From IMG/VR virus record IMGVR_UViG_3300000271_000006, positions 1-64,000 of that record: a stretch of DNA of 64,000 nt; one strand, given 5' to 3'. The notes under the pieces were generated by a model, which worked only from the letters and a program-made list of their open reading frames with translations, was not told the origin of the DNA and did no database searches. The translations under genes were made by a program, and so were the position numbers. Below, in pieces: positions 34,133-59,195 of the stretch. Origin of the DNA: a virus. Numbering within the stretch: position 1 is the stretch's first letter; each line of letters starts with the position of its first letter.

Positions 34133-34584
34133 GAGGAATCCAATTTGGTTCAGGCGGTCGTAAGATTGATGGATGGGCTAACCATGATCGGGATTTGGAC
34201 ATCTCGGTTACGCCATTCAAGATTCCTGACAACCATTACGACGCAGCATTTGCGTCCCACGTTGTTGAGCATATCACCGGCCCGCAAGCCCTGCGATTCT
34301 TTCAGGAGTGCCACCGAATCATTAAGCCGGGAGGCTGGCTGCGAATCTCAATCCCGGTAGTAGGCCCTTGGCTCACCCTTGACCACGCCCGCGACCTCAC
34401 CGTAAACCACGGCCACCTTTGCTGTTGGAATGAGGACTTGCTTCGCGCCTTCTTTTGGATGGCTGGGTTTGACCAGCAAAAAACCCGCAGGGTTGATCGG
34501 GATGACCGCTACGACCGCCACCACCTTGAAATTGGAGAAGAGCTTGACGCTATCGAAAGCTGCCGGATGATTGCTTGGAAATGA
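34129..34584 (+). CDS. class I SAM-dependent methyltransferase (type 11-like)
   Basis: ORF track, 151 aa, with IQFGSGGRKIDGWANHD and ASHVVEHITGPQALRFFQECHRIIKPGGWLRISIP. Confidence 0.7.
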   Translation: MRGIQFGSGGRKIDGWANHDRDLDISVTPFKIPDNHYDAAFASHVVEHITGPQALRFFQECHRIIKPGGWLRISIPVVGPWLTLDHARDLTVNHGHLCCWNEDLLRAFFWMAGFDQQKTRRVDRDDRYDRHHLEIGEELDAIESCRMIAWK

Positions 34585-34648: not shown

Positions 34649-35344
34649 ATGAAATACCTACTTGGCAGCGGCTATTACCGCCCGGAAAACAGCGGCTACG
34701 ATCTATTCAAGTATAATTGGGCGGAAAATACGGCTAAGGCTGCCCCAGCACCAAACATGGTGGTAATTATTTGCGCGGGCCACGAGGCCCCGGAGACCGT
34801 TGGTGCATTTCACCCAATACAAGCACTTGAACTTCGCATGGGTCAGAATTTAGGCCATGTTGGCGACCTGCTTAACGGAAGTAAAGCATATGAGTTTTGT
34901 GGATGGTCTGCCTCGGTTCTTGCCCTAGCCCTGCTGGCATACAATGCCGAACTAGACTTGCTTTACAAAGAATCTGATGCCCTAGCCTTCGGCCCTTGGG
35001 TAGAGCGCATGTACGCAGATATGGGCGACGGAGATATGGTGTTCGGGCGAAAGATGAACAGCCCGCCCTACATGGCCTGCTCCCAAAGCCTGTTCCTGAT
35101 CCGCCACCGATTCCTGCCGGCCTTCGTAGCCTCCTACATCGCAATGGGGAAGGACGGGGACCCGCACAACCTACCCGAGACCAAGTTTGCCAAGTTGGAA
35201 GAGATTATCGGGACAGACCGGATTAAGCGGCTTAGTTTTGGCGTGGATCGAGAAAGACCTATTCCTTGGGACGACGAGGTTTTCTTTGCTCAGAAGTGGA
35301 CCGATGAGGAACTTAACGAAGCCAAGCGAAGGGAGTTGATATGA
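34649..35344 (+). CDS. hypothetical protein in glycosylation cluster
   Basis: ORF track, 231 aa. Confidence 0.6.
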   Translation: MKYLLGSGYYRPENSGYDLFKYNWAENTAKAAPAPNMVVIICAGHEAPETVGAFHPIQALELRMGQNLGHVGDLLNGSKAYEFCGWSASVLALALLAYNAELDLLYKESDALAFGPWVERMYADMGDGDMVFGRKMNSPPYMACSQSLFLIRHRFLPAFVASYIAMGKDGDPHNLPETKFAKLEEIIGTDRIKRLSFGVDRERPIPWDDEVFFAQKWTDEELNEAKRRELI

Positions 35345-35925
35345 CCGACCAAACCGTCCACCTTATCCACCTAGGAGAGCCGAGTGGTTACGCCTACGGC
35401 CAAGCCCGCGAAGCTGTTAACTCCTTTAACGCGATGGGCAATCCTTGCGCGCTATGGGAGGAGGACGACCTTCGCCTGCGCTATGGTAGGGCTTTGGTGA
35501 ACCGAGTCGTCATGGACTTCCCCTCGCTTGCCGGCGCAAGCAACGTGTTCCGCCTCTGGGTCATCAACGACTTCGGGGGTATCTACGCCGATACGGACAT
35601 CATCTGCCACAAGCCAATCCACAAGCTCTTTGAGCACGAGGCATTCGGCGCAATCCAAGATGACGAAGGCCGCATCTGCAATGCGTTCTTTGGTGCTCGC
35701 AAAAACCACCCATGGATTCGGTGGCAGATTGACCATGTTTACGAATACAAGGGGCTTGGGGCGTACTGGGGGGTTGACCTAATGAGCCGCGCCCCTCGCG
35801 AGGGAGTAACGCTTATCGACCCCGCAATCTGCTACCCCTATTCATGGACAACCCCAAAGGACGAACGCAAACTAAAGCCCGAAACGCTCGTTGAGCACAA
35901 ATGGGCTGGGAGCTGGATCAAATGA
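35341..35925 (+). CDS. glycosyltransferase, DXD sugar-binding type (GT32-like)
   Basis: ORF track, 194 aa. SNVFRLWVINDFGGIYADTDI matches the Gly_transf_sug signature. Confidence 0.65.
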   Translation: MTDQTVHLIHLGEPSGYAYGQAREAVNSFNAMGNPCALWEEDDLRLRYGRALVNRVVMDFPSLAGASNVFRLWVINDFGGIYADTDIICHKPIHKLFEHEAFGAIQDDEGRICNAFFGARKNHPWIRWQIDHVYEYKGLGAYWGVDLMSRAPREGVTLIDPAICYPYSWTTPKDERKLKPETLVEHKWAGSWIK

Positions 35926-42715: not shown

Positions 42716-44662
42716 ATGGCAGTCCAATATCCTAGCCCGAACGACGGGCCGGCCGATCTTCTCAAGAAGCTCGTTTACAATGCTGCCGAAGGCGGCACAG
42801 GTGGTGGAGGTGGTACGCAGGGAGCACAGGGAGTTCAGGGACCGCAAGGCGATGCAGGAGGCCCGCAAGGGGCACAAGGAGCGCAAGGTGCTCAGGGTTC
42901 GGTAGGCCCACAGGGCGCAACGGGTTCTGGGGCACAGGGCGCTCAGGGTGCAACCGGCGCACAGGGAAGTCAAGGAGCCCAAGGAGCACAGGGCTCGGGG
43001 TCCCAGGGTGCCCAAGGACCACAGGGAGCCGCAAGTGATGCGACGCTGGCCGCAAACCAGACATGGACTGGCAGCAATACGTTCAGCATCAGTCCCCGCA
43101 TAGTCCGGTACAGCCTTGGCTCAGGAACAGCCCTTACGCTTGGGCTCCACTACTACGCCAGCCTTTCGGCCAACCGGACGCTTACCTTTAGCGGAACGCC
43201 GGCAGAGGGGTCTACTACCAGCGTTGTCATTACGACCACGGCCGCAATCACCCTTACGTTCCCGAGTTCCAAGCGGAGCGGCTCGTCTTCAACGCCGATT
43301 ACCTCGATTGCGCTTGAGGGCGCGCAAATCTATACGTTCCTCTGGACCTATGCTGGCGGAGAGTGGGTGCTTGCGGATTCGGTTGGCATTGATGATCCGC
43401 TGGCAACGACAGAGGAAATGGAGTTGCGCACAGAGACGGACCCCCGCCGCATGAGCCCCGCCAACGTTGGCACGGCGATTGATGGGGCATTGCTTGAGGT
43501 TATTTCCACCGACGGCACCTTGGGTGACAACAGCGACAATGTGGTGCCTAGCGAGAAGGCCGTCAAGGCCTACGTTGACAACAACTCTGGCAGTGTGCCT
43601 GACGCGATGTACGTCTTGCGCGAAACCGCAGACCTAGGTACTTTGCCTGCCGGCTGGTATGTAGCCGACGGCACCGAGGGGACCGTTGACCTTTCGCTTG
43701 AGGCGCCCGCTGGCATGACATGGGTGAAGCGCACGCAGGGCCTTGCACCGACAGTCGTGAGCGCGAAAATCTTGGCGGACGGCGAAACGCTTGAGGTGGT
43801 CTTTGACAAGGCCGTCACGGGTAATGGAAGCGGCTTCACGCTAACCCCGAGCGGTGGCGCAGCCGGCCTGAGCTACCTGTCAGGTGATACTACCGCGACG
43901 TGGCGCTGGACCATTGATCGCCCGATTATCGACACCGAGACCGCGACGTTGGGCTACAATGCGGGTGTAGGCAACATGGCTGCGGTCAACAACAGCGTTG
44001 CTCTTGCGACCTTCTCTGGCGAGTCGGTCACGAACAACTCGGCCGAAAGCGGCATCACGTACCTCGTCAACCAGCGCTTCGAGGGTGCTGGGTATGACAA
44101 CGGTGAGACGTGGACCACGTCCGTTGGTACGCCTGACCCCGACTATACTACGACGGTGCTGGATGGCTCGCAGTCGCTCTTCCTCAACCTTGCAACTGGT
44201 ACGCCGGCGCGAATCCGGCTGGACTTCCTCAACCAAGACACGGTCTATTTCTACTGCCTGTTCCGGCTAGTCGGAAGCGCGCCCGGCGGAAACCGCGACA
44301 TCGTTGCGTTCGGTCCGAACGGAAGTGCCGACCAAGACCTGCGCATCGTCGTAACCTCGGCGGGAAGGCTATCGACGCATATCACCGGAGTTAGCCCGGC
44401 AGATGCCCTGAGCTTTGGCACGACCTACCACCTCTGGGCGCGCTACTCGAAGGGGACCGGCTCAGACGCGGTCGTGGAGGTCGCATACTCGACCGACGGC
44501 ACCAAGCCGACTTCCGGCACCAAGTACGCGACGGCGACGAATCTCGCGCACACGGCTCAAGCGGGCCGCGTTTGGCTCGGTTTCAACGCAACCGGAAACT
44601 ACGACGTGATCTTTGATAAGGTTTTGGTGGCGGCGACGGAGATTGGCAGCAACCCGACCTAA
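42716..44662 (+). CDS. collagen-like repeat tail fibre protein
   Basis: ORF track, 648 aa. Gly-X-Y tract over about nt 42794..43027 ([23 protein letters not shown]...). Fibre motif NVVPSEKAVKAYVD. Large beta-rich C-terminal domain. Confidence 0.8.
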   Translation: MAVQYPSPNDGPADLLKKLVYNAAEGGTGGGGGTQGAQGVQGPQGDAGGPQGAQGAQGAQGSVGPQGATGSGAQGAQGATGAQGSQGAQGAQGSGSQGAQGPQGAASDATLAANQTWTGSNTFSISPRIVRYSLGSGTALTLGLHYYASLSANRTLTFSGTPAEGSTTSVVITTTAAITLTFPSSKRSGSSSTPITSIALEGAQIYTFLWTYAGGEWVLADSVGIDDPLATTEEMELRTETDPRRMSPANVGTAIDGALLEVISTDGTLGDNSDNVVPSEKAVKAYVDNNSGSVPDAMYVLRETADLGTLPAGWYVADGTEGTVDLSLEAPAGMTWVKRTQGLAPTVVSAKILADGETLEVVFDKAVTGNGSGFTLTPSGGAAGLSYLSGDTTATWRWTIDRPIIDTETATLGYNAGVGNMAAVNNSVALATFSGESVTNNSAESGITYLVNQRFEGAGYDNGETWTTSVGTPDPDYTTTVLDGSQSLFLNLATGTPARIRLDFLNQDTVYFYCLFRLVGSAPGGNRDIVAFGPNGSADQDLRIVVTSAGRLSTHITGVSPADALSFGTTYHLWARYSKGTGSDAVVEVAYSTDGTKPTSGTKYATATNLAHTAQAGRVWLGFNATGNYDVIFDKVLVAATEIGSNPT

Positions 44663-46344
44663 TGGCGACGATTGTAGCAGACTCCGCAGGGTTTGACGAC
44701 GTGCAGGCGGCATACCTCGCTGCCGCGCCGGGCGATACCGTGAAAATTCCCGCAGGCGATGTGACGTGGGGCGCGTCTCTTAGCATCACGAAGCTTGTCA
44801 CACTTCAAGGGGCAGGTGTCGGTAACACGATCATCCGGCGCACTGGCACGTCCATGATCGGCGGCAGCTACAACGTGGTCTATCACGTGGACGGGCTGGA
44901 GCTACGCCTCACCCACACGAACAATTCGGCCAATATCCTCTTTCTATCTGGTCGAGGTCACAAGATTTCTAACTGTAAATTCGTCGGAGAGACATCCAAG
45001 GTCGTTGGAACAATCTGGCGGGGAGGCACGCTGTGCCCGCATCCCAGCGGAGTCGTCTGGAACTGTACATATGAGAGCGCCCGAGTCATGGTGCAAGGTG
45101 ACTCTGCAAGTACACCCGGTTACGTTTACGGTCGGCGGATTTGGGCAGACCTCGACGACGTAGTCTCGTGGGGCATGGAGCATACGGTGTTCATTGAGGA
45201 CTGCATTTTCGACGCGACTGCAACGACCGGGAACATCACCGACGCTGAGATCGGCGGGCACTACGTGATCCGTTACTGCGACATCACTGGCGGCGGCGTC
45301 TTCGTGCACGGCATATCGAGCAATGGAGAGCGGGGTACCCGACAGATCGAGGTGTACGGCAATACCATGCACTACGAAGGAACGGGTGCTCAAGACCCGC
45401 CGATCCGCGTGCGCGGTGGAACGGCTTTGATTTGGGGAAACACGATCACGGGTGGGTGGACCAACTGGTCGACCGCGACGATCATGCTGGACAACGAGCT
45501 TCAGCGGTTCGGCAACGACATTGGCGACGGCAACGAGCCGGTGGAGAACGGCACAGGCTCTCACACGGGCGGCACGTCGTCCACGGTATTGACGGACTCC
45601 GGCAAGAGCTGGACGCCGTCTGCCTTTGTCGGATGGACTGTTTACAACCTGACCGACGGAAGCCTTGGCACGATCACGGCGAACACCGCGACGACCGTTA
45701 CCGTCTCCGCACTTTCCGGCGGCTCCGATAACCAATGGGAGTCCGGCGACTCCTACAAGGTGACATCCGGCTACCCAACCCGCGACCAAGTCGGCCGCGG
45801 AAAGGACGCCGAGTTCTGGGTGCTTGACACCCCCGGCCCGGCACAGGAACTCGTACCGGTTTACCAGTGGAACAACACGCGGAACGGCTTTGCCCTCACG
45901 CCTTCGGACGTGGTGGTTGCGAATAACTCTGGCGGATGGATTCAGCTTAACCGCGACTACTACAACGCCGAGTTCACCTACACCCCCTACCCATATCCGC
46001 ACCCCCTGCGCGGCACCGCAGCCGCCCCCGTCGTCACCAGCAACCCCACCAGCGCAACCCGCGACGTAGGCCAGTCGGTGACGTTCAGCATCACCGCATC
46101 TGGCAACCCAACCCCGACCTATCAATGGCGGAAGGCGGGTGTTAACATCAGCGGCGCGACCTCATCCAGCTACACTATCGCCTCCGTCCAGCTCTCCGAC
46201 GCGGCGGACTACGACTGCGTTGTGGCCAACTCCGAAGGAGCCGACACGAGCGGCGTTGCGACACTCACGGTCAATAGCCCTTCTGCTGGCGTAACCGGCC
46301 CCGGAGGGCGCGGCGGAAGACGCGCCATTGCATCAATGGTATGA
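44662..46344 (+). CDS. beta-helix tailspike/depolymerase-like protein with C-terminal Ig (I-set) domain
   Basis: ORF track, 560 aa. N-terminal pectate-lyase-like pattern (TVKIPAGDVTWGASLSITKLVTLQGAGVGNTII). C-terminal SVTFSITASGNPTPTYQWRKAGVNISGATSSSYTIASVQLSDAADYDCVVANSEG. Confidence 0.7.
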   Translation: MATIVADSAGFDDVQAAYLAAAPGDTVKIPAGDVTWGASLSITKLVTLQGAGVGNTIIRRTGTSMIGGSYNVVYHVDGLELRLTHTNNSANILFLSGRGHKISNCKFVGETSKVVGTIWRGGTLCPHPSGVVWNCTYESARVMVQGDSASTPGYVYGRRIWADLDDVVSWGMEHTVFIEDCIFDATATTGNITDAEIGGHYVIRYCDITGGGVFVHGISSNGERGTRQIEVYGNTMHYEGTGAQDPPIRVRGGTALIWGNTITGGWTNWSTATIMLDNELQRFGNDIGDGNEPVENGTGSHTGGTSSTVLTDSGKSWTPSAFVGWTVYNLTDGSLGTITANTATTVTVSALSGGSDNQWESGDSYKVTSGYPTRDQVGRGKDAEFWVLDTPGPAQELVPVYQWNNTRNGFALTPSDVVVANNSGGWIQLNRDYYNAEFTYTPYPYPHPLRGTAAAPVVTSNPTSATRDVGQSVTFSITASGNPTPTYQWRKAGVNISGATSSSYTIASVQLSDAADYDCVVANSEGADTSGVATLTVNSPSAGVTGPGGRGGRRAIASMV

Positions 46345-46919
46345 AGCTAATCGCGGCAATACTCGTTTCCTTGGCTTTTACGGGCTGCAACTTACTTCCG
46401 AAGGCCAAGGTGGGAAGCGCCTCGGTAACGGGCATTAAAGACCAAGGAACAGCCGCTACGATTGATTCCGGCAAGGCAGGTGAGTCCTTTGAGGTTCCGG
46501 CCAACTCAACCTACACAATCACCAAGGTTGATCCGGGCTTGGATATGCCGGCAACGGTTGTGGAGTCATGGACCTTCGCCGGCCCAACCAAGTTTGTCAG
46601 AACAAGCGAAACGACCAAGGCCTCTACGGGAGCGGTTGACCAATCCGTTGCCAAGGCCCGAATCGTTGAGGAGAGCCGGCGCTATCTTGTTTGGGCAGGC
46701 ATTGGCCTTATTGCCATCGGCGCAATCCTCGCCTTCAACCCGCTGGCCCGCTACCCACTTGGGGGAATCGGCCTCGGCGGAACCGGAGGATTACTCCTTT
46801 TCGCCCACCAAAACCCAACCCTTTTCTACGTTGCTATTGGGGTAGGGGCTTTGGCGGTAGGCATCATCTTCGGCGGAGAGATCATGGAGAAACTGAAAAA
46901 GAAGGGGGATGATACCTAA
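46341..46919 (+). CDS. lipoprotein-signal protein with C-terminal TM segments (unimolecular-spanin-like topology)
   Basis: ORF track, 192 aa. MKLIAAILVSLAFTGC lipobox. The C-terminal third is hydrophobic (WAGIGLIAIGAILAF..., VAIGVGALAVGIIFGG). Confidence 0.6.
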   Translation: MKLIAAILVSLAFTGCNLLPKAKVGSASVTGIKDQGTAATIDSGKAGESFEVPANSTYTITKVDPGLDMPATVVESWTFAGPTKFVRTSETTKASTGAVDQSVAKARIVEESRRYLVWAGIGLIAIGAILAFNPLARYPLGGIGLGGTGGLLLFAHQNPTLFYVAIGVGALAVGIIFGGEIMEKLKKKGDDT

Positions 46920-47760
46920 CCTTACGGTCAACGACTCCACTCGCACCGCTATCTATCGCGGAACGCAGGCCCTTGCCCAGCTTTCAGGCTCCCAAGCCCC
47001 CGACCTGCAAAAGGACTCCATCACCGACTTTGAGCGGAAGATGGTTCAGAGCCTCATCAGTCTGGCGAATAGCGGATTCGGTGCTCTGACAGGACCGCAA
47101 GGGTCCCAAGGAAGCCAAGGGATTCAAGGCGCGCAGGGGCCACAAGGCCCATCCGGCCCTCAGGGTGCTTCCGGAGCCCAAGGACCGCAAGGCGTTGCGG
47201 GGTCTCAGGGCAATCAAGGCGCGCAGGGGCCACAAGGAGCCAATCCCGCTGGGGACGTTAACTTTACCTCTATCGGCGCGACGACGCCGGGTACAGGGGC
47301 GTTTACGACGCTGAGTAGCACCACTGGGGCCAACTTTGCGACCACCTCCGGCAACGTCGGTATCGGGACGGCGTCGCCCGTAAATGGGCGGCTGCAAGTT
47401 CAAACCGATACGAACAAAAATGCAGCGTTTATCAATGCTGTGCACGATACTTTTACAAATAACGCCACAGGCATTGGATTTAGCCGGTCTTCGGATGGCG
47501 TCTTTGCTTTAAGTGCCATTTTTGACACTGCCGCCGGCGGGCTGGCCGTTACTGGACGAGAGGGGTTGTTTTTCGCCACGGGCGGGGGTTCTCTTTACAA
47601 CAGTACCGTTGAACACATGCGCATCACAGACGCAGGCAACGTCGGCATCGGGACGACGACGCCCGGAAGCAAGCTGTCCATAGTTGGCTTGCCAACCTCT
47701 TCCGCAGGACTTTCCGCAGGCGATATCTGGAACGACGGTGGAACACTAAGAATAGTCTAA
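46909..47760 (+). CDS. collagen-like repeat fibre protein
   Basis: ORF track, 283 aa. [34 protein letters not shown] tract. The C-terminal domain has GNVGIGT repeats. Confidence 0.8.
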   Translation: MIPNLTVNDSTRTAIYRGTQALAQLSGSQAPDLQKDSITDFERKMVQSLISLANSGFGALTGPQGSQGSQGIQGAQGPQGPSGPQGASGAQGPQGVAGSQGNQGAQGPQGANPAGDVNFTSIGATTPGTGAFTTLSSTTGANFATTSGNVGIGTASPVNGRLQVQTDTNKNAAFINAVHDTFTNNATGIGFSRSSDGVFALSAIFDTAAGGLAVTGREGLFFATGGGSLYNSTVEHMRITDAGNVGIGTTTPGSKLSIVGLPTSSAGLSAGDIWNDGGTLRIV

Positions 47761-49097: not shown

Positions 49098-50045
49098 GTG
49101 GTTGTATCCGACATCATTGACGACCTGAAAAGTGCTGAGATTCTCGGCACTTGCGACAACCGGACGATCTTCAACCGGCTGACCGATGCGCAGCGGCTTC
49201 TCGCCAACCAAGGCATCATTGACCCGCTCATCGGAGAGATGGACCTCTGCGTGTGCGATGGGTGCGTGACTTTGCCGGCGGAGGTTGAGACCCCCCTCGC
49301 CGTTAACGTCGCCGGCCAGCCCACCCTTATTCGCGATGAATGGTTCCAGTACCACATCGGAGGCACGGGCTCTCAGTCCTATGCCGATTGGCGCTATACC
49401 GACCACCTTGGAACGGTTGCCACCTTCCGCGACCCCAGCGCCCCCGTAAAGCTCGTTGCAGAGGTAGAGAACGCCAAGGACAGCAATACCCAGCTTCGTG
49501 TCTTCGGTTGGGATTCTACAGGCAAGCGCATCTATACCCCTGATGAGAATGGAGACCTTCAAGACGGCTTCCTCGTCCCGACCGTTTACGGCTTCTCCCA
49601 GCCCAATCCCGCCGCCCCCCTTATCGCACGTATAGACCGGGTGCAGAAACTCGTTACAAACGGGTTTATCCGGCTTCTGGCGGTCAACGACGACGGCTCC
49701 GCGCACACCCTCATCGGCCACTACCGGCCCAACGAGACGAATCCCCGCTATGCCCGAATCCGCGTCGGGAACAAGAAGTGGATCAGGCTCAAGTACCGCA
49801 AGCGGGATTTTGAAGTCCGCTCGGTAAACGACTGGATCAACATCGAGAACCGCGAGGCAATTCTGTTGGCGGTCAAGGCGGTCCACCTTCGCCGTCGGGG
49901 CCAGTACGAGGCAGCCCGTACCGCAGAGGCGGAAGCCGTGCGCATCCTTGGCAACGAAGCCCATGCCAAGCGCCCGCCGGGAATATCCCCCTTCCAAGTC
50001 ATCTATAACGACTTCCCGCAAGGGACCGAGAGCCTTACCTACTAA
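49098..50045 (+). CDS. virion structural protein (function unassigned)
   Basis: ORF track, 315 aa (GTG start). Shares 1 nt with the next ORF. Confidence 0.6.
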   Translation: MVVSDIIDDLKSAEILGTCDNRTIFNRLTDAQRLLANQGIIDPLIGEMDLCVCDGCVTLPAEVETPLAVNVAGQPTLIRDEWFQYHIGGTGSQSYADWRYTDHLGTVATFRDPSAPVKLVAEVENAKDSNTQLRVFGWDSTGKRIYTPDENGDLQDGFLVPTVYGFSQPNPAAPLIARIDRVQKLVTNGFIRLLAVNDDGSAHTLIGHYRPNETNPRYARIRVGNKKWIRLKYRKRDFEVRSVNDWINIENREAILLAVKAVHLRRRGQYEAARTAEAEAVRILGNEAHAKRPPGISPFQVIYNDFPQGTESLTY

Positions 50046-51994
50046 TGGCCGATGCCTCAGTCCTCATTCCGCCGCAAGGAGACGACTTTCTGGCGCTAGG
50101 CCAGAACAGCTATCTTAAGCCCCAGAAACTCCAAGCTGGCCAGTATGTCGAGGGCATGAACATCATGTGCCGAGGGGGTAGCCCGCAAACCCGCCCCGGC
50201 TCCCGTACCGTCTTCACCGTACCGGACGGCAACTTCCAGGGGGTGACGTTCTTCTCGCCGGCAAACGGGGTCGGCCATATCGTCTTTGCGGTGGATGGTC
50301 GGGTTTACGCCGCATCCCATCCCTTCACGGCCTGCGTTCGCCTACCCGGAATCCAGTTTTCGGTTGATGCCCCTCAAATCGCTTGGGCTTCCTGCCTAAA
50401 GTCCACCTTCTACGATTCCAACGGAGAGCTGCAATCGCACGACACTCCCTACTCCGTCCTTATGATGCAGGACGGTCGGACCCGTGCGGCCTACTGGGAC
50501 GGAACGGTTTCCGGCCATATTGACCCGACCCAGAGCGACAACTTCGCCGAAGACGGAAGTCGCATCACAATTGATGGGAGGGACGGCACGCCTGTTGGGT
50601 TGTGGATGGTTTGGAGCAACAACCGCCTTTGGGTTTCGCGGGGCAATCAGGTTTTCGCCTCCGACATCGGCAACCCCCTTAAGTTTACGGAGGCCCAATA
50701 CATCAATGAGGCCAGGGCCTTCTACCTCCCATGCCCGTGCACGGGCATGGTTGAGACAAGCGACCAGCAGGGCATCATATGCTTTACCGAGACGACCGGC
50801 ACGTTCCTGACAACCTCCATCCAAGACCGGTTGAAGTGGTTGGACACCCCTGAGTTCCAGAAGACCGTACTGCCAACCATTGGATGCGTGGCCCCGCGCT
50901 CAATCGTCCAGCAGTACGGCATGGTGTGGTGGTATTCGGCGAAGGGGCTAATCAGTCTTAACGACGCACTCCGCCAGAACTTCACGTCTCGTCTCGACAT
51001 CCAAGACAACGAGATGTTTTCAACTAAGTTCAACGTAAGCTACGACTTGAGCAGGATTTGCGGCCACTCCTACGAGAACCTGCTCCTGATGAGTGTGCCA
51101 TATGGGGATGCACTTAACACTCGAACGATGGTGCTGGATCAGGCGCCCTTCAACGAGAACGTGAACGCATGGGCGTCCCACTGGACGGGATGGAGACCGA
51201 TTGAGTGGGCCAAGGGGCTCATCAACAGCGAGGAACGAATCTTCTTTGGGTCCGTGGACTATGACGGAAAGAACCGGATATGGGAAGCTATGACGCCGGA
51301 CAAGACGGACAACGGGACCCCCATCACCTGCTACGTCATGACCCGCGAGCACTTGTTTGATTCGCGGGACTACAAGGTGTTCAACTATGCCGAGATCGAG
51401 GTTGAGGGGCTTTATGGGAATTGCGCGGTCATGGTGGCGGCGGCTGGGGTACGCGGGGCATTCCAGAAGATCGGCACGTTCGACTTGGTCGCAACAAAGG
51501 GCACGGTCTACGGGGACAAGAACTACGGCGTAAGCCATAGGTTCGGAGGCTCTCGGCCGCAAACCCGTCTCATCAAAACTCAGGACCGGGTGCCGGCTAG
51601 CGAATGCAATGAGGCCTGTGTTGAGGGGGATGTGGCGCCCATGAAGGACAAGGCGTTCAGCCTGCTTATCGCTTGGTCGGGGGTAATGGCGGTGAACTCA
51701 TACCGAATCTTTGTCCAGTCCACCGACCAAACCTACCAAGGGGCCTGCGAAACGGACGAGGAAGGTCCGCGCCTGCTTACTGAAGAGGGGTGTGGGGCGC
51801 TTGCCTACTTCACAGACCTAAAGCCGTTTGAGGAGTACGAGTCCACCAAGACCTTTTCCAAAGTCAACCCCGAGACGGCGATTCTCAATACCTACACTTG
51901 GACGGCGGAATCAAAGATCAGCCAGAAGGACGCCGACCGAAAGGCGGAGACGGCGGCAGAGGTTTACGTGCTGACTCAACTCGGAGAAGCGTAG
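50045..51994 (+). CDS. large virion structural protein (function unassigned)
   Basis: ORF track, 649 aa. Confidence 0.7.
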   Translation: MADASVLIPPQGDDFLALGQNSYLKPQKLQAGQYVEGMNIMCRGGSPQTRPGSRTVFTVPDGNFQGVTFFSPANGVGHIVFAVDGRVYAASHPFTACVRLPGIQFSVDAPQIAWASCLKSTFYDSNGELQSHDTPYSVLMMQDGRTRAAYWDGTVSGHIDPTQSDNFAEDGSRITIDGRDGTPVGLWMVWSNNRLWVSRGNQVFASDIGNPLKFTEAQYINEARAFYLPCPCTGMVETSDQQGIICFTETTGTFLTTSIQDRLKWLDTPEFQKTVLPTIGCVAPRSIVQQYGMVWWYSAKGLISLNDALRQNFTSRLDIQDNEMFSTKFNVSYDLSRICGHSYENLLLMSVPYGDALNTRTMVLDQAPFNENVNAWASHWTGWRPIEWAKGLINSEERIFFGSVDYDGKNRIWEAMTPDKTDNGTPITCYVMTREHLFDSRDYKVFNYAEIEVEGLYGNCAVMVAAAGVRGAFQKIGTFDLVATKGTVYGDKNYGVSHRFGGSRPQTRLIKTQDRVPASECNEACVEGDVAPMKDKAFSLLIAWSGVMAVNSYRIFVQSTDQTYQGACETDEEGPRLLTEEGCGALAYFTDLKPFEEYESTKTFSKVNPETAILNTYTWTAESKISQKDADRKAETAAEVYVLTQLGEA

Positions 51995-51995
51995 C

Positions 51996-52145
51996 ATGGC
52001 GAGGAACGTACTCATCAAGGATAGTGCAACGGCGTTCAAGACGTTAGACCCCACGCCGCCAACCCGAGTTGTGATCGAATACCAAGCGTTTCCTACGGAC
52101 AAGTACGTGGTTCCAGAAGAAGAGGAGGAAGACGAAGAAGAATAA
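51996..52145 (+). CDS. 49-aa acidic-tail protein
   Basis: Own translation: MARNVLIKDSATAFKTLDPTPPTRVVIEYQAFPTDKYVVPEEEEEDEEE. Confidence 0.35.
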   Translation: MARNVLIKDSATAFKTLDPTPPTRVVIEYQAFPTDKYVVPEEEEEDEEE

Positions 52146-52991
52146 TTGGACTACATCGGTGGAGAGCGATCTACGGCGTTTCGCCAGATGGGGGTGCGGT
52201 ATCCGCGCCTTAGCGGACTTGACTACATCGCCTTCCCGGTGGACATGGCCCCCGGAGACCAAGGTCCGCCCGGCGCCCCCGGAACACAAGGCGAGCAGGG
52301 GCTTCAAGGCATCACCGGCAACGCCGGACCCCAAGGCATAAGCGGAGAGGGCGGCGCACAGGGACCGCAAGGAACCTTCGGGGCTCAGGGTCTGCCCGGC
52401 TTGCAAGGTGTGGTTGGTGTCCAAGGGGCACCGGGAAGCAACGGTGTCCAAGGGGCAACCGGAACACAGGGAGCCGTTGGCGCTCGAGGGACGCAGGGCG
52501 TGCAGGGTCCCCAAGGATTTCAGGGACCAAATGGAGCGAACGGTCCGCAAGGCCCGCAGGGGAGTCAGGGCGTACAAGGCCCGCAAGGGGTGCAGGGCGC
52601 GCAAGGCAACCAAGGTGCGCAGCTTACCGGACAGACCGGAGACCCCGGCGCCACCGGCCCCCAAGGCGTTTCTGGCAGCAATGGAATCCAAGGACCCCAA
52701 GGACCGCAAGGGCCACAGGGCTTCAATGGCGCTAATGGCGCACAAGGCCCTTCCGGTGGCACGGGTCCGCAGGGGCTGCAAGGACCACAAGGGAGTCAAG
52801 GTGTTCAGGGTCCACAGGGCCAGCTTGGTCCGCAAGGCGCAACAGGCAATGATGGACAGGAGGGCGCAGAGGGGGACGGGTCTGAGTTTTATCTTGGGTA
52901 TGGTGACGGTTATGCGGACTTCCGAAAACCATATGAATCATACCTTGCTGGCTATGATGAGGGCGTAGCATCTTGTTGCGGTGGAGGATAA
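52146..52991 (+). CDS. collagen-like repeat protein 1 of tandem trio
   Basis: ORF track, 281 aa (TTG start, true start uncertain). Long Gly-X-Y tract. The C-terminus is ...[16 protein letters not shown]. Confidence 0.75.
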
Positions 52992-53776
52992 TGGCTACTG
53001 ACATCTGTATTCCGTGTGGCGACCAGGGACCCCAAGGGTTTCAGGGAGCATCCGGCCCGCAAGGGGTTCAAGGCCCCCCCGGATTTGATGGGGCGCAGGG
53101 CGCTACGGCACCCAATGGCCCACAGGGGGTAGCGGGGGCACAGGGCTCCATCGGCGCAACGGGTCCTGCCGGGCCACAGGGGTTTAATGGTTCCAATGGA
53201 GCACAAGGCGCAATTGGGGCAACGGGCGCACAAGGAACCACGGGCGCGGGCGGCGCTCAGGGCGCAAGAGGCGCTCAGGGTAGCCAAGGGGTGGCCGGCG
53301 CTCAGGGCGTCGCAGGAATTGGCGGGCCTATCGGGTTTCAGGGGCCTCCCGGACCAATTGGATCAACGGGAGTATCTGGCGTACAGGGAGCCAAGGGTGC
53401 ACAAGGAACAATTGGCCCACAAGGGGCTCCGGGCGCCAATGGTGCAAATGGCCCACAGGGTGCTCAGGGTCCCAGGGGCGCTCAGGGCGGAGCCGGCAAT
53501 ACGGGGCCGTCTGGGGCAAGTGGCGGCCAGGGGCCTCAAGGCACAGTTGGTGGTAATGGTGGTCCGGGTACGCAAGGTACGCAAGGCCCGGTTGGCGAGA
53601 ATGGAGACGACGGTCCTCCGGGCGAGGATGGCGAACCCGGCACCTATGCCGACGGCTACGCCGCTGGCATTGGCGATGCGGAAGACGCCAACACCATAGA
53701 CTTTCTCGCCGGCTACGATGATGGGTGTAGCTGCGCCACGGGTAAAACTTGCGATACCGCACCCTCATCCTGCTAA
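52991..53776 (+). CDS. collagen-like repeat protein 2 of tandem trio
   Basis: ORF track 52973..53776. ATG 52991 ([19 protein letters not shown]...). The C-terminus is ...[24 protein letters not shown]. Confidence 0.8.
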
Positions 53777-54417
53777 TGAGCGACGATTGCATATCAAGAG
53801 GTGTTCAGGGAATCCAAGGCGACGAGGGCGTACAAGGCCCGCAGGGCGCTCAAGGTCCGCAGGGAGCACAAGGAACGACAGGCCCGCAAGGGGCTCCGGG
53901 CGCAACGGGGCCGCAGGGTGGTACCGGCGCGCAAGGCGCTCAAGGTCCGCAGGGGCTGGCCGGAACCACTGGCCCGCAAGGCGCAACGGGTGCTCAGGGA
54001 GCGCAGGGTGCTCAGGGGTTTCAGGGAACAAGTGGCACCCATGGATCACAAGGGGGCGCTGGTGCCCAAGGTGGCCAAGGCCCGCAGGGCTCGCGTGGCG
54101 TTCAGGGGCGTCAAGGCACACAGGGTGCCCAAGGCCCGCAAGGCGCAAACGGGGCTCAGGGAGCGCAAGGCCCATCTGGCAACCAAGGGCCGCAGGGAGT
54201 GAACGGAAGCAATGGTGCGCAGGGTGCGCAAGGTGCTCAGGGGACATCTGGCGTTGCAGGAGAGGATGGGCCTCCGGGTGCAGACGGTCCAGATGGCCCG
54301 CAAGGCCCGCAGGGGGCGTTCGGGGACTTTGGTCCCCAGGGGGCTCAAGGACCACAAGGACCAAAGGGAGAGACTGGCGCACAAGGGCCTCCCGGACCGC
54401 CGTTCTCTGGGTTTTAA
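53776..54417 (+). CDS. collagen-like repeat protein 3 of tandem trio
   Basis: ORF track 53749..54417. ATG 53776 ([24 protein letters not shown]...). Confidence 0.8.
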
Positions 54418-54454
54418 CTTGACACATAAGGACTACTAATCCACGAATTGGTTC

Positions 54455-55681
54455 ATGGCAAAAGTCAGCGTAATCACCCCCACAAATTCGGTTGAGCGGT
54501 TTCGCAAGGCAAAGCAAAGCCTCCTCTATCAAACCGAGCAGGACTGGGAGTGGATTGTGCTGTTCAATGGTGGGGCACAAGCGCCGATTGAAGACGATCC
54601 GCGCATCCGCTGCATCAATTCCCGCATCAGCCTTCCATTCGTTGGAGCCCTGAAAAAGGAGGCATGTAGCTATGCGACGGCTCCCTTCATCGTGGAGTTT
54701 GACCATGACGATGAGCTTTCGCGAGATTGCCTTGAGGAAGTGGTAAAGGCGTTTGAGACGACCCCCGCCGTGTTCGTCTACTCGGACGACGCCTGCGTAA
54801 ATGCCGACGCCACCCCGCGTACCCCCTACTCCTCGTGGTACGGATGGAGCACAAGAGTGGATACGTTTAAGGGCGAGAAGGATGAGGAGTTGATGGTGCA
54901 TAACCGCCCCCTTCTCATCCCCCAGAACGTAAGCCGAATCCTCTTCGCCCCTGACCATGTTCGGGCTTGGCGAAAGGACGCCTACGAGGCAGTAGGAGGG
55001 CACGACCCCTCGCTTAAGATTTGCGACGACCTCGACCTGATGCAGAAGCTCTACGCCTATTCCGGCGGGAAGTTTCACTACATCCAGAAGTGCCTCTACA
55101 AGTACATCGTCCACGGGTCTAACACTTGGCTCAAGAATCAGGATGAGATTCAGGTCAAGATGATGGAGCTTCACGACAAGATGGTGGAGCCAATGGCCCG
55201 CGCCCATTGCAACAACTGGGGGCTGGCGATTGCGGAACTTGGGGTCAACTTCCCCATCAACGACCTTCGGGCCATAGAGAATGCCGGCGGTCATTGGCCG
55301 CTCAAGGACAGCTCCGTTGGGCTCATCGTAAGCAAGGGGGCAATCGAGCAGCTAGAGAAGCCCGTCCACCTTATGAACGAGGCCTACCGCGCGCTTGTGC
55401 ATGGAGGGCTATTCATCATTGAAGTTCCGGAGTCCCCAAGCTCCATCACCTTCCACCCTGCCAACAAGAGTCAATGGAACATGACGAGCTTCTGGTACTT
55501 CACCCGTAAGCAGAACCAAGAGTTCATCCGCCACCTTGGCGTTGATTGCCGGTTTCAGGAGGTCCAGCTTTCGCGGTTCTACCCTAGCGACTGGCACAAG
55601 GAAAACAACCTCCCCTACATCCGCGCCCACCTTGCCGCCATCAAAGACGGGCCGGTTCTCCACGGCGGCTACCATATCTAA
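54455..55681 (+). CDS. bifunctional GT2 glycosyltransferase / SAM-methyltransferase
   Basis: ORF track, 408 aa. KVSVITPTNSVERF...QDWEWIVLFNGG and FDHDDEL (GT2). C-terminal LVHGGLFIIEVP methyltransferase-type motif. Confidence 0.75.
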   Translation: MAKVSVITPTNSVERFRKAKQSLLYQTEQDWEWIVLFNGGAQAPIEDDPRIRCINSRISLPFVGALKKEACSYATAPFIVEFDHDDELSRDCLEEVVKAFETTPAVFVYSDDACVNADATPRTPYSSWYGWSTRVDTFKGEKDEELMVHNRPLLIPQNVSRILFAPDHVRAWRKDAYEAVGGHDPSLKICDDLDLMQKLYAYSGGKFHYIQKCLYKYIVHGSNTWLKNQDEIQVKMMELHDKMVEPMARAHCNNWGLAIAELGVNFPINDLRAIENAGGHWPLKDSSVGLIVSKGAIEQLEKPVHLMNEAYRALVHGGLFIIEVPESPSSITFHPANKSQWNMTSFWYFTRKQNQEFIRHLGVDCRFQEVQLSRFYPSDWHKENNLPYIRAHLAAIKDGPVLHGGYHI

Positions 55682-55684
55682 TCC

Positions 55685-55888
55685 ATGAAAACATACGAAA
55701 TAAAACAAGTCGCAAACGGTTACATTGTTAGCGATTCACACGACCGATTTGAGGGTTGCCACGCATCCACTCCGCCCCACGTGTTTGAGACCTTTGAGGC
55801 CATGAGCGCGTGGCTTGAGTGCCAGTTTCTTGCCTTGGATAAGAAAACGAATGATGGGTGCATTGGAACGATGGGCATTGTTGGATAA
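55685..55888 (+). CDS. hypothetical protein
   Basis: ORF track, 67 aa. Confidence 0.5.
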   Translation: MKTYEIKQVANGYIVSDSHDRFEGCHASTPPHVFETFEAMSAWLECQFLALDKKTNDGCIGTMGIVG

Positions 55889-55891
55889 GCC

Positions 55892-56557
55892 GTGAATAGG
55901 GGCGTCCTTTACATCGTCTGGGGCAACAAGGCTGAACAAGCCCTTAATCGCTCCATTGCGTCCGTTAAGCGCCACCACCCCGAGCTGTCCATCCACGTCC
56001 ACCGCCTAGACCAAGGAAGCCTCAAGTCCAAGGTTGTCATGGGAAGCCTTAGCCCGTTTGACACGACCCTTTACCTTGACGCTGACACTGTTGTATTGGG
56101 CGATCTTAACGCGGGGTTTAAGAAGGCGGAGTGGTTCGGGCTTGCCTGCTGCATTTGTGAGGCGCCATGGATGAGACGGTACGGTCACGAGCATGGCGAC
56201 ATGATTGAGTACAATACCGGCGTAATCTTCTGGCACAAGGAGAAGGCGAAGCCCGTTATGGACCTCTGGCCAACTGAGGCAGAGGGACCAAGCAAGTCTT
56301 CGTGGACGACCTTTGACAACGTTGTACGCGGGCTGGCATTTGACGATCAGGCGGGCTTTGCGCGAGCCGTCGATAAGAGCGGGATCAACCCGTTCGTCCT
56401 TCCCGTCAACTACAACTACCGAGGGGACTACTTTCAGCGATGGGCATTTTCACCCATCAAAGTCTGGCATGGGTACAGCGAACCTCCGCCTCATGCCCAG
56501 ATGATTAGCGAATCCACAGAGCGAGGAGAACGTCTTGTAACCTACATTACCACCTAG
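55892..56557 (+). CDS. GT8-like glycosyltransferase
   Basis: ORF track, 221 aa (GTG start). TLYLDADTVVLGDL (DxD) and EYNTGVIFW. Confidence 0.65.
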   Translation: MNRGVLYIVWGNKAEQALNRSIASVKRHHPELSIHVHRLDQGSLKSKVVMGSLSPFDTTLYLDADTVVLGDLNAGFKKAEWFGLACCICEAPWMRRYGHEHGDMIEYNTGVIFWHKEKAKPVMDLWPTEAEGPSKSSWTTFDNVVRGLAFDDQAGFARAVDKSGINPFVLPVNYNYRGDYFQRWAFSPIKVWHGYSEPPPHAQMISESTERGERLVTYITT

Positions 56558-56595: not shown

Positions 56596-57249
56596 ATGGA
56601 AAAAGGCCACCTTGTCCTCTATACCTATTCACGAACCGGCGAAGCGCCGCCCCCGTTCTTACTGGAGGATAAGAAAGGCCGTCCCATTGAGAAGGTGTGC
56701 TTTATCAGGTCGGACGAGGACCGCGACGAGAACGGTTGGGCGCTTGTGCCAGTCCGTGAAATCATGGCCAACAAGCCGGACGAGATCATCGAGACCCAGC
56801 TTAAGTGCTTCTCGGTAGGCCAGTTCAAGAGTGAGTTTACGGTGTGGTTCAATTTTGGATCACCCCCCGAGGTAAATCCTTGGGAGCTGGTGGACGCGAT
56901 GGTTGCGGATGGGGCGTGCATTGCCATGCCTCGCATGGGTAAGCAGGTTTACGCAACCCTTCCGCGCACCCACGAAACCCGCAAGGATCAGGCGATTGTC
57001 AACCGACTTGAGACCGCACTCAACGAAGCCAGCGTAGGGGAAGAGGTCCCCGTTGATAGCTCGGTAGTGGTACGCCGGCAATGCGTTGATCTTTTCAGGC
57101 TTGAGCGGGCGTGGATTAATGAATCCCTCAAGACGATGGGGCGCTTTCCAAATCAGGCCTTCTTTCTGGCAAAGAAGAAAGCCGAAGCCACAAAGTTCAA
57201 AACCATTGCCGATGAAAAGCTACGCAAGGAAGACGCTATTAAGGGTTAA
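56596..57249 (+). CDS. hypothetical protein
   Basis: ORF track, 217 aa. Confidence 0.6.
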   Translation: MEKGHLVLYTYSRTGEAPPPFLLEDKKGRPIEKVCFIRSDEDRDENGWALVPVREIMANKPDEIIETQLKCFSVGQFKSEFTVWFNFGSPPEVNPWELVDAMVADGACIAMPRMGKQVYATLPRTHETRKDQAIVNRLETALNEASVGEEVPVDSSVVVRRQCVDLFRLERAWINESLKTMGRFPNQAFFLAKKKAEATKFKTIADEKLRKEDAIKG

Positions 57250-57478: not shown

Positions 57479-58378
57479 ATGGCCACCCAAGTACCCCTAA
57501 ACTTCCGAGTCCATCCCTTTCCGGCTGGGTATGACAAGCCGATAAACGAGTTTGCGCAGGACTTCGCCAACCGACTTCGCGGGTTCTCCTCTTCCCCGAC
57601 CGCCCTCATTGCAAGTGGGACTGTTCTTCCCACAAGCGATGTTGGGCCGTTTTGGAAGGAGGACACAAGGGAGTGGTACGGTTGGAACGCGGGAACAGGA
57701 ACCTACATTGCTCAGGCGATTGGAGACGAAAGCCTTGGGTATATTGCCCAGATTTCCCCCGGCCCGAACCAAGCGGTTTATACCTTCTGGATTGAGCTGG
57801 ATGGAACGGGTAAAGCCAAGTCCATCAGGTACTACTCGGGCGGAGCGTGGAAGGACGTTTACGAGGACAAGTTTGCCCAATACCCCACAACCGCCCAGAT
57901 GAACGCGGCTATCTCCGCCGCTATTGGAGGAAGCTCGTCGTCTGCTGTTCCGGTTGAGGCATTCATCAACGGGGGAAGCCAATCGGTGCTGGCGGATGGT
58001 ACCTTTGATAAGGTTGTTCTCTCAGGCGAGCTGGTTGACCCCGAGGGCGCGTGGAATACTACCAACTCGGAGTTTACCGCCCCGGAGAGCGGTACTTACG
58101 TCGTAAGCGCATGGGCTCAGGTTGATAACGATACCGCCACGGCTTCCGGTATGGAGGTCTTGCTTGCTTTGTTCGTTAACAACGTGCAGTACGGCGTTCC
58201 GGAGGGTACATCCGTTGCATCCCCTCCTAGCGGTCGGTGGTTTCCCAACCTGAGCGGCAAGATCGTGGCGCTCTCACAAAACGACGTTCTAGACCTTCGT
58301 CTTGCACCGGGAGACGGGGTCGGCTCTGGCAACGTTACGATTACCCACGCCCGTATCTCAATCCATAAGATTGCCTAA
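57479..58378 (+). CDS. tail fibre-like protein with C1q/TNF-like C-terminal domain
   Basis: ORF track, 299 aa. C-terminal FTAPESGTYVVSAWAQV...VLLALFVNN...VLDLRL pattern of C1q-type jelly rolls. AAGGAG RBS. Confidence 0.6.
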   Translation: MATQVPLNFRVHPFPAGYDKPINEFAQDFANRLRGFSSSPTALIASGTVLPTSDVGPFWKEDTREWYGWNAGTGTYIAQAIGDESLGYIAQISPGPNQAVYTFWIELDGTGKAKSIRYYSGGAWKDVYEDKFAQYPTTAQMNAAISAAIGGSSSSAVPVEAFINGGSQSVLADGTFDKVVLSGELVDPEGAWNTTNSEFTAPESGTYVVSAWAQVDNDTATASGMEVLLALFVNNVQYGVPEGTSVASPPSGRWFPNLSGKIVALSQNDVLDLRLAPGDGVGSGNVTITHARISIHKIA

Positions 58379-58749
58379 TGATTGAGGTAAAGGAAACCAA
58401 GGACAGGGATTACGTCAAGTCGGTGCTTTCCAATCCCGGAATGGGAAGGCTTTGCAACGGCGGGCGAAATGGCCCGGACGTGTCTGACATTGATGCCGTT
58501 GTTGACCTCCCCATCCATACCTTTCTTGAGGTGACGGAGGACGGAGTGCGCAAGGGGTTCGTTTCGTTTACGGCGTTCGGCGGTGCCCACTTCATCCACT
58601 TGGCGCTTTATACCCGAGGGGCCAAGACCCTTGAGGCTTTTGGCAAGGCGATGGACTACGCCCGTGAGAACCTAGGCTACAACGAAGTCCACGCCATCTA
58701 CCCCGAGGGGCGCAAGAGTTTTGAGCGCATTACTGCTATTGCTGCATAA
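58378..58749 (+). CDS. small GNAT-like protein (weak)
   Basis: ORF track, 123 aa. Size and adjacency to a clear GNAT. No strong motif. Confidence 0.45.
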   Translation: MIEVKETKDRDYVKSVLSNPGMGRLCNGGRNGPDVSDIDAVVDLPIHTFLEVTEDGVRKGFVSFTAFGGAHFIHLALYTRGAKTLEAFGKAMDYARENLGYNEVHAIYPEGRKSFERITAIAA

Positions 58750-59195
58750 TGTACGAAGTTTCCACACTTTCAAAAGATTCTCTGCCTGAGCTTTATCAGC
58801 TTGGCCATGCTTTCTTCAAGGAAGGAAAGCTTCCCGGCGAGTTCATTGAGTCCGAGTTTATCAAGACGTGGAATACGCTTATGGACCTTGGTGTTGGCAC
58901 AATCTTTTCTTTACGAAAGGACGGTGAACTTAAAGGCGGGCTGGGCGCAATTAAATACCCCGACGCAAACGACGGGAAGTGTGTGGTGACAGAGGCGTTT
59001 TGGTATGTGCTAGCGGAAGCAAGGGGACACGGGCTCGCCCTACTGAAGGCCTTTGAGCGATGGGCAGTGGATGTTGGCGCAGAGCGCATTATCATGGTCC
59101 ATCTTTCGGGACTCACTCCAGAGCCTCTCAAAAAGCTATACCTCCGAATGGGGTATGATGAGTGTGAGGTTCATTACGTCAAAAAGATAACCTAA
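58749..59195 (+). CDS. GNAT family N-acetyltransferase
   Basis: ORF track, 148 aa. VLAEARGHGLALLKAFERWA matches GNAT motif A. Confidence 0.65.
   Translation: MYEVSTLSKDSLPELYQLGHAFFKEGKLPGEFIESEFIKTWNTLMDLGVGTIFSLRKDGELKGGLGAIKYPDANDGKCVVTEAFWYVLAEARGHGLALLKAFERWAVDVGAERIIMVHLSGLTPEPLKKLYLRMGYDECEVHYVKKIT

Follow-up and report, generated by a model that had tools for sequence, protein, structure and literature searches.

A candidate accessory tail-fibre cassette of three collagen-like chains and glycosyltransferase genes at the nozzle gene of an uncultured podovirus

What can a podovirus build from three collagen-like genes that are set one after another and followed by genes for sugar-transferring enzymes? 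The question is raised by the IMG/VR virus record IMGVR_UViG_3300000271_000006, of which positions 1 to 64,000 (64,000 nucleotides, one strand) were analyzed and are called here the window. The three genes encode collagen-like proteins that we designate chains A, B and C. Behind them lie a gene for a soluble fusion of a glycosyltransferase family 2 (GT2) domain with a methyltransferase (MT) fold, designated GT2-MT, and a gene for a GT8-like enzyme (Table 1). The answer toward which we lean, by a modest degree, is that these genes make up an accessory tail-fibre cassette placed after the nozzle gene of an uncultured podovirus of ~70 kb, with A, B and C assembled into one heterotrimer that is glycosylated by the neighbouring enzymes. 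Protein families were scanned with Pfam and PHROG, folds were compared by Foldseek searches of AlphaFold2 (AF2) models against PDB, and the viral clade was surveyed by tblastn at ~30 loci with a homolog of the nozzle gene. Megablast of the 48-60 kb region against GenBank phages gave no match, a look-up of the exact GT2-MT sequence of the window retrieved no contig, and a scan of metagenomes made few additions to the viral scan.

That three open reading frames (ORFs) consist almost purely of Gly-X-Y triplets cannot be a matter of chance. All three match the Pfam Collagen family (PF01391) with 99.6-108 bits at a gathering cut-off of 27.2, their collagen regions also give strong PHROG tail-fibre matches, and both junctions, A/B and B/C, have the form TAATG. 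Chain A has a Gly-X-Y region of 209 residues (52254-52880), made of 69 triplets and a single two-residue break, LT, and a C-terminal tail of 36 residues that ends in CCGGG. Chain B opens with the nine-residue cap MATDICIPC, continues with a Gly-X-Y region of 210 residues (53018-53647, 70 triplet positions) and closes with a tail of 42 residues, whose four Cys are all kept in the alignment with its ortholog from the related contig L029. In triplet 11 of this chain the window has Ala for Gly, and a Gly to Ala/Ser break is conserved at this place. Chain C is the simplest: the eight-residue cap MSDDCISR is followed by 67 uninterrupted triplets (53800-54402, 201 residues) and by only four further residues, FSGF. 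Gln occupies 38-58% of the Y positions across the trio, while the X position is mainly Pro or Ala. The first-pass annotation, made from the sequence alone, had described three consecutive collagen-like ORFs joined by TAATG, almost wholly Gly-X-Y and rich in Gln, Pro and Ala, two of them with a Cys-rich non-collagenous C-terminus. The coordinates, the PF01391 matches and the composition agree with this description, and the two Cys-rich ends, those of A and B, are present as described and conserved. Pfam found no C1q or BclA_C domain in chains A, B and C.

The three collagen products as read here are not among the public gene calls. Also in relatives the collagen genes are broken up or mis-stranded in such calls (L026 7868-10001; L056 6083-7970), for example as products of 116, 37, 130 and 150 residues or as calls on the minus strand. 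As a result, the trio does not show up in existing annotations. Two antisense ORFs in the window (52044-52835 and 53765-55294) were rejected as genes, being periodicity artefacts opposite conserved genes of the plus strand. No promoter- or terminator-like break beyond chance was found inside the block.

How well is this arrangement conserved? Chains A, B and C and GT2-MT are contiguous in seven fully resolved genomes (the window, L029, L001, L003/L026, L056/L004, L005 and L058), and a truncated eighth case, L061, comprises chain A and the first part of B, where the contig ends. The last five of the seven belong to a second, distantly related podophage clade with contigs of ~47 kb, which was found through the GT2-MT search. 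Its GT2-MT enzymes are 46-53% identical to that of the window, and its block lies between p315-like and nozzle-like genes, 22-26% identical to those of the window, so that its position is shifted by one gene. The gap between chain C and GT2-MT is 0-38 bp over the seven genomes, 38 bp in the window and 0-31 bp in the second clade. The chain types follow in constant order: A with a Cys-rich tail of ~35 residues, B with a longer Cys-rich tail of 42-67 residues, and C with a tail of 2-6 residues in all genomes. The cassette is missing from ~30 members of the window's own clade with the same gene backbone. Since the GT8-like gene and a gene for a protein of 217 residues (p217) occur in the window lineage only and neither is present in the second clade, the core consists of A, B, C and GT2-MT. 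This block is a conserved mobile cassette, inherited as a unit.

Where in the virion would its products be located? Just upstream of the trio lies the gene for a protein of 649 residues (p649). The AF2 model of p649 (predicted local distance difference test, pLDDT, 82.6) has as its top 18 Foldseek PDB matches exclusively nozzle or tail-hub chains of podophages, with E from 8e-21 to 2e-10; the matches include Pa223, PhiM1, VP1, P22 gp10, Sf6 and T7 gp12. By its modelled fold, p649 is a podovirus tail nozzle. Sequence-only PDB searches with p649, with its family profile and with the 221-residue GT8-like product yielded nothing useful. The homologs of p649 outline a large uncultured clade, in which the longest contigs fall mainly at ~65-76 kb. 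In ~30 loci of this clade the backbone has the order p167, p315, nozzle, a variable gap, p299 and, farther on, p281. The homologs of p315, for which no Pfam or PHROG family match was found, lie directly upstream of the nozzle homolog in these ~30 loci and directly upstream of the trio in the second clade. The gap contains a collagen block only in the window, L029 and L061; in other members it is occupied by unrelated fibre- or spike-like genes for 114-984 residues. With p649 predicted as the nozzle, the trio would therefore represent tail-proximal accessory fibres and not head fibrils.

The N-terminus of chain A leads to the same place. A motif of ~25 residues, roughly S-T-x-F-K-x-L-x-P-x-x-P-R-v-v-x-L-x-Y-v-A-x-P-v-D, opens all post-nozzle genes of 10 clade relatives, and chain A shares it, while the distal domains behind the motif differ among relatives. 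Such a pattern suggests that the motif is the virion-docking element of a modular fibre site. In the window lineage chains B and C do not have it and start just 8-9 residues ahead of the helix. The earlier proposal of fibrils decorating the virion in general should be replaced by a tail-proximal location, because the genes adjoin that of the nozzle and chain A bears the post-nozzle fibre motif of the clade. As a separate observation, the post-nozzle site is a hotspot of gene swapping (L063, L067, L077, L085, L087, L089), and certain genomes have two motif-bearing genes.

In the window the gene of chain A is split by an in-frame TAA (52143-52145), which falls within an acidic (GAA)n stretch that separates the two copies of the docking motif. 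The 49-residue ORF ahead of the stop carries the first copy. Read together, this ORF (51996-52145), the TAA and the sequence from 52146 onward align over their full length with chain A of L029 (350 residues) and of L061, which is intact in both. The second copy occupies residues ~8-36 of chain A, and a TTG start at 52146 retains one full copy. The stop is present in the deposited gene calls of the Joint Genome Institute (JGI) and Logan, with the exact 49-residue product on record, and a single G to T change suffices to create it. The gene may still be working, it may be freshly broken, or the TAA base may be an error.

Do the three genes encode one mixed triple helix or three separate ones? 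Within each genome the helix spans of chains A, B and C are closely matched: 209, 210 and 201 residues in the window, 237, 237 and 228 in L029, 120, 120 and 117 in L001, 141, 141 and 138 in L003, 111, 111 and 111 in L056, 168, 162 and 165 in L005, and 135, 135 and 132 in L058. The differences among the three chains of one genome are thus 0-3 triplets, over a two-fold range between genomes (111-237 residues), and none of 200,000 permutations over the seven genomes equalled this match. Gene conversion was considered as the source of the equal lengths and was ruled out by the nucleotide identity of the paralogs: the collagen regions of one genome are 38-55% identical in register, which is about the baseline for Gly-X-Y. 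Between the window and L029 the length difference is 28 residues in chain A (gaps of 12, 6 and 10), 27 in chain B (gaps of 3, 21 and 3) and 27, in one block, in chain C. The indels are independent in each gene, at separate positions, and yet have equal sums.

The C-terminal Cys give a further clue. Their numbers in A, B and C are 2/4/0 in the window and L029, and 3/5/0, 5/7/0 (four loci) and 5/9/0 in the second clade. The sum is always even, C always has zero, and in the six loci of the second clade A and B each have an odd number. Judged from these counts, full pairing would be impossible in homotrimers and can be reached in a 1:1 knot of A with B. Each chain of the second clade also has a paralogous N-terminal domain of ~60 residues (D-F-A..P-W..I.G-K-P..F-P-P..H), and these domains are compatible with a pseudo-threefold heteromeric base. 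Because of the matched lengths, the anchor on A only in the window lineage and the Cys pattern, taken together, the trio probably builds one A/B/C heterotrimeric fibre. In the literature searched such a heterotrimer is without description for prokaryotic or phage collagens, the mixed-chain design being described for animal collagens only, and tandem A/B/C collagen genes of phages are not mentioned in the open-access texts that were searched.

What could the neighbouring enzymes contribute? In GT2-MT both domains score above the Pfam gathering threshold: Glycos_transf_2 (residues 5-126, E 5.7e-10, 39.8 bits against 23.3) and Methyltransf_11 (residues 232-322, E 1.1e-5, 26.4 bits against 21.2), the latter covering profile positions 19-95 only. 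The GT2 motifs E81 and D83-H84-D85-D86 are invariant in an alignment of 15 diverse members of the family. As these are nucleotide-sugar and metal motifs, their invariance indicates selection for catalysis. The MT half presents a different picture. The segment of S-adenosylmethionine (SAM) binding motif I/post-I, which reads DLGGG...P.GW.S.D in most family members, is replaced by ELGVNF together with a deletion of 9-12 residues in the window and in P0123, and a downstream conserved MT motif has diverged in the window and its closest relative too. The gene had been described as a bifunctional GT2 plus SAM-methyltransferase; the two domains stand, while bifunctionality is doubtful with motif I deleted. 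An assignment as a HemK-like Gln methyltransferase was rejected, as inspection of alignment A7 revealed no NPPY-type motif.

The 221-residue GT8-like product has no Pfam match at E <= 0.01, no PHROG match and no meaningful PDB sequence match. Its AF2 model (pLDDT 94.4) is matched first by GT8 enzymes, namely the LARGE1 xylosyltransferase domain, GlyE, XXYLT1, LgtC and glycogenin, and after them by GT6 and GT77 enzymes, all with probability 1.0 and a query-normalised TM-score (TMq) of 0.5-0.63. The family includes 511 unannotated proteins, in which the Asp residues of D63-x-D65 are invariant. The name GT8-like is consequently justified by fold and DxD motif, and not by membership in the GT8 sequence family (PF01501). 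Neither enzyme has a hydrophobic or membrane segment. Both were said to follow the trio immediately, which is correct for GT2-MT; the two enzyme genes are themselves separated by a 67-residue ORF (55685-55888) that has no family match and no homolog in the surveyed clade loci, including L029.

Are the collagen chains the substrate of these enzymes? We examined the best 80 loci of 302 relatives of GT2-MT in reference genomes, with 8 kb on each side, for collagen-like ORFs. These loci represent Actinomycetota, Planctomycetota, Bacteroidota, Proteobacteria and other groups. Collagen-like ORFs were present in 64 of the 80, in 29 cases within 300 bp and in most others within ~800 bp; they lie usually on the same strand and reach 742 triplets in certain loci. 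As an internal control for linkage, they cluster at the enzyme and are not spread across the flanks fetched. This adjacency in 64 of 80 loci therefore supports the view that the collagens are substrates of the enzyme, and glycosylation of chains A, B and C would fit with it. Three further loci show the same neighbourhood. The 225-kb contig L006 has a single collagen gene of 644 residues 35 bp upstream of GT2-MT; in L060, a prophage that resides in a 6.3-Mb chromosome and encodes tape measure and integrase, collagen genes lie on both sides of the enzyme gene; and in the clade member L082 (3686-8558) a collagen protein of 1212 residues, with a genuine C1q domain that scores above threshold (PF00386), is encoded directly upstream. 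One of the two flanking genes of L060 (5512-10409) was seen to have a BclA_C-like end. The linkage of GT2-MT to collagen is not reported in the open-access full texts that were searched.

The idea of a dedicated module of substrate and modifying enzymes gains from both the inheritance of A-B-C with GT2-MT as a unit in two clades and the linkage in bacteria. Two of its details need correction: the GT8-like gene, present in the window and L029, is outside the conserved core, and Ser/Thr at X/Y cannot be the universal acceptor, since some collagens linked with GT2-MT have almost none. The only universal feature of the partner collagens is ~50% Gln at Y; Thr takes just ~9% of the Y positions in the window. 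Glycosylation of the hydroxylysine type was ruled out, Lys being nearly absent.

Several points weigh against a glycosylated A/B/C heterotrimer. We infer its formation from comparison; the in-frame TAA splits chain A in the window, so the cassette may be decaying in this genome; the argument that only A docks is void in the second clade, where all three N-terminal domains are similar; and the N-terminal Cys of the window (B 2, C 1, A 0) have an odd sum. The matched lengths could also be expected if three homotrimers must span an equal distance. Accordingly, one may think of three separate homotrimeric fibres, paralogous and with different tips, kept to an equal length by the reach that each must have from the tail. 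Descriptions of the collagen-like proteins characterised so far in prokaryotes and phages are all of homotrimers (PMC8968730), each chain of the second clade has an N-terminal domain of its own, and single fibre genes with collagen stretches occur elsewhere in the window, at 42716 and 46909. We nevertheless consider this explanation unlikely. In the window lineage B and C are without the anchor motif, and C is without any N- or C-terminal domain; odd Cys in A and in B would remain unpaired in homotrimers, yet they add up to an even sum; the covariation of lengths within 0-3 triplets was reached by independent indels; and the order A-B-C with its chain-specific tails is kept across two clades.

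As for the enzymes, adjacency of genes is no proof of substrate, and the GT2-MT loci L008 and L012, with long flanks, have no collagen gene nearby. Ser plus Thr per triplet ranges from 0.00 to 0.85 in the collagens linked with GT2-MT (0.27 in the window), Lys is nearly absent from them, and the MT half is probably inactive in this lineage. Could the glycosyltransferases be cargo that acts on polysaccharide of the host surface, for superinfection exclusion, or on virion proteins other than the collagen chains, at a site that merely tolerates insertions? Glycosyltransferases of mycobacteriophages glycosylate capsid and tail-tube proteins. Several homologs of the enzymes are annotated as 'O-antigen biosynthesis protein' at source, the post-nozzle site is a variable hotspot, a second sugar-enzyme cluster is found elsewhere in the window, Ser/Thr is missing from certain partner collagens, and for the virion-associated glycosyltransferases that mycobacteriophages encode capsid glycosylation has been suggested in the literature. 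However, the adjacency of GT2-MT and collagen recurs on unrelated backbones, in two podophage clades, a tape-measure prophage, a jumbo contig and the bacterial loci across phyla. The enzymes have no membrane segment or flippase partner, their genes lie inside a structural operon, and no integrase was seen among 20 further window ORFs in a scan that was not exhaustive. Cargo of this kind is in our opinion rather improbable. Still harder to credit is a GT2-MT whose main work is non-catalytic, in the assembly or chaperoning of Gln-rich helices, with glycosylation incidental. The full-length retention of an MT half without motif I would agree with this, as would the fact that G-X-Q, the sole feature universal to the partner collagens, is not a known acceptor residue, but the GT2 motifs (E81, D83-H-D-D86 and others) are invariant across the 15 members. 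Only a slight chance can be given to the idea that GT2-MT is a collagen-specific modifier of the Gln in G-X-Q, putting a sugar or methyl on the side-chain amide, and that it acts on the first natural heterotrimeric collagen outside animals. Such chemistry on the Gln side-chain amide is not known from any collagen.

If the trio does form a glycosylated A/B/C fibre, how might the cassette work? The three translationally coupled genes would give roughly equal amounts of the chains, which would fold into one heterotrimeric collagen helix of ~200-210 residues, ~60 nm in length. The N-terminal motif of chain A would dock the fibre at the adaptor/nozzle. Chains A and B would form the Cys-rich C-terminal knot (2 + 4 Cys in the window), which would set stoichiometry and register and present the distal tip, and chain C would contribute essentially the helix alone. 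Glycosylation of the chains by the soluble GT2 enzyme would take place in the cytoplasm, either ahead of assembly or in its course. The role of its MT-fold half, without the SAM-binding loop, would probably be limited to substrate binding or scaffolding, and the GT8-like retaining transferase may extend the glycan.

It is useful to compare this design with known systems. C1q and the heterotrimeric collagens of animals likewise have three distinct chains from adjacent paralogous genes, near-equal helices and Cys-containing non-collagenous ends on certain chains only; in the animal proteins the non-collagenous ends select the chains, and disulfides join one chain to another. The chain A end CCGGG may resemble the cystine-knot motif of collagen III. 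In contrast to the animal systems, the phage chains have no C1q globular head or C-propeptide by Pfam, their Y position is rich in Gln and not in hydroxyproline, there is no sign of a prolyl hydroxylase, the chains belong to a phage tail, and the heterotrimer is a deduction. Giant viruses are similar in that virus-encoded enzymes modify virus-encoded collagen or capsid proteins. Mimivirus collagen is modified by L230 and carries hydroxylysine-linked sugars, and A064R of the chlorovirus PBCV-1 is a glycosyltransferase fused to a sugar methyltransferase (GT-GT-methyltransferase). These are viruses of eukaryotes, however, and the hydroxylysine of Mimivirus contrasts with the Lys-poor chains of the window. 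The Gtr-type modification of O-antigen in lysogenic conversion is not matched: neither window enzyme has a hydrophobic segment, and the ORFs scanned, not exhaustively, included no integrase.

Nearer in setting are the collagen-like tail fibres of phages (PHROG 'collagen like minor tail' or tail fiber; the EPclA type of E. coli prophages, PMC3368898), which also have Gly-X-Y stalks encoded beside tail structural genes. They differ in being single genes, presumed homotrimers, with sizeable globular or coiled-coil domains, whereas in the window anchor, knot and helix would be shared out among three minimal chains, and a dedicated enzyme gene travels with them. For the enzyme, the closest parallel is Clostridioides difficile SgtA, a GT-A enzyme encoded beside bclA3 that adds N-acetylglucosamine (GlcNAc) to Thr of collagen repeats (PMC7157674). 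BclA3-SgtA, and also BclA glycosylation in Bacillus, share with the window a collagen-like surface-fibre gene that adjoins a gene for a soluble glycosyltransferase of GT-A/GT2 type. SgtA has TPR repeats, no methyltransferase fold, Thr-rich acceptor repeats and a place at the spore surface, in contrast to the window enzyme, which has no TPR match in Pfam, and to the window collagens, which have much Gln and modest Ser/Thr. For a heterotrimeric fibre made by three tandem genes, the nearest precedent is the tail fibre of virophage DSLV2, in which three consecutive co-oriented paralogous genes, related to those of cyanophage fibres, give a 1:1:1 heterotrimer by co-purification (PMC12724248). Its proteins have a T4 gp37-like collar/needle (PF07484) and no collagen repeats, and no associated glycosyltransferase is reported.

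The positions of the genes considered are collected in Table 1. Downstream of the enzymes, p217 might assist in fibre assembly or form part of the tip. The conserved clade protein p299 is likely the primary fibre or receptor-binding protein and would mark the downstream edge of the insertion; its C-terminal BclA_C (C1q/TNF-like) match, E 0.004, is below the cut-off.

Table 1. Genes and ORFs at the nozzle site of the window and the evidence for each
Feature	Position	Strand	Evidence and remarks
315-residue virion protein (p315), putative adaptor	49098..50045	+	Synteny only; always paired with the nozzle gene
Predicted podovirus tail nozzle, 649 residues (p649; T7 gp12 / P22 gp10 class)	50045..51994	+	AF2 and Foldseek
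49-residue ORF, first copy of the chain A anchor motif	51996..52145	+	In frame with 52146; corresponds in alignment to the chain A N-terminus of L029 and L061
Collagen chain A	52146..52991	+	281 residues; Pfam Collagen E 2e-31; orthologs in L029 and L061
Collagen chain B	52991..53776	+	261 residues from ATG; Pfam Collagen E 8e-29; L029 ortholog aligned
Collagen chain C	53776..54417	+	213 residues; Pfam Collagen E 2.4e-31; L029 ortholog aligned
GT2-MT, soluble GT2 and methyltransferase-fold fusion	54455..55681	+	Pfam PF00535 and PF08241
67-residue ORF between the two enzymes	55685..55888	+	ORF list
Predicted retaining GT-A glycosyltransferase, GT8-like fold	55892..56557	+	AF2 and Foldseek; present in L029
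217-residue protein (p217)	56596..57249	+	No family matches; by tblastn only in cassette genomes (27% homolog in L029)
299-residue conserved clade protein (p299)	57479..58378	+	Follows the nozzle gene in almost every clade locus, whether the trio is present or absent

The tail module of the window holds two more collagen-containing genes, which makes five in all: one at 42716-44662 (648 residues), with a weak Pfam collagen match and strong PHROG tail-fibre matches, and one at 46909-47760 (283 residues; Collagen E 5e-8). Between them, at 44662-46344, lies the gene for a 560-residue protein whose C-terminal domain is immunoglobulin-like (Ig_3, E 6e-14). Within the tail block, 58749-59195 encodes a GNAT acetyltransferase (PF00583, E 7.6e-7), with homologs at the same place in L078, L083 and L084. 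The separate sugar-enzyme cluster that the first-pass annotation had named includes a 151-residue methyltransferase fragment (34129-34584), which matches the C-terminal half of the profiles only, and a 194-residue DXD glycosyltransferase (35341-35925; Gly_transf_sug, E 2.5e-8). Farther away, 22937-25855 encodes a primase/helicase of 972 residues (PHROG 239, E 1e-86). The minus-strand genes at 11613-12251 and 9904-10461 encode a protein with the N-terminal domain of dATP/dGTP diphosphohydrolase (PF18909, E 1e-20) and a nearby Methyltransf_24 protein. The PF18909 protein hints at manipulation of the nucleotide pool or modified DNA bases, and the Methyltransf_24 protein has a weak match to rhamnosyl O-methyltransferase/CmcI.

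The view of prokaryotic and phage collagens as homotrimers limits their use as models and materials for the heterotrimeric collagens of animals. A natural minimal A/B/C system, if the trio is truly one, would do without hydroxyproline, with a small Cys knot and with helices tuned by evolution to 37-79 triplets, and it would be a source of modules for chain selection and register setting. That GT2-MT is linked to Gln-rich collagen-like genes across phages and numerous bacterial phyla suggests that a system of collagen modification is widespread. For phage biology, the finding would mean that a large clade of uncultured podoviruses has at its nozzle an accessory-fibre cassette that can be swapped.

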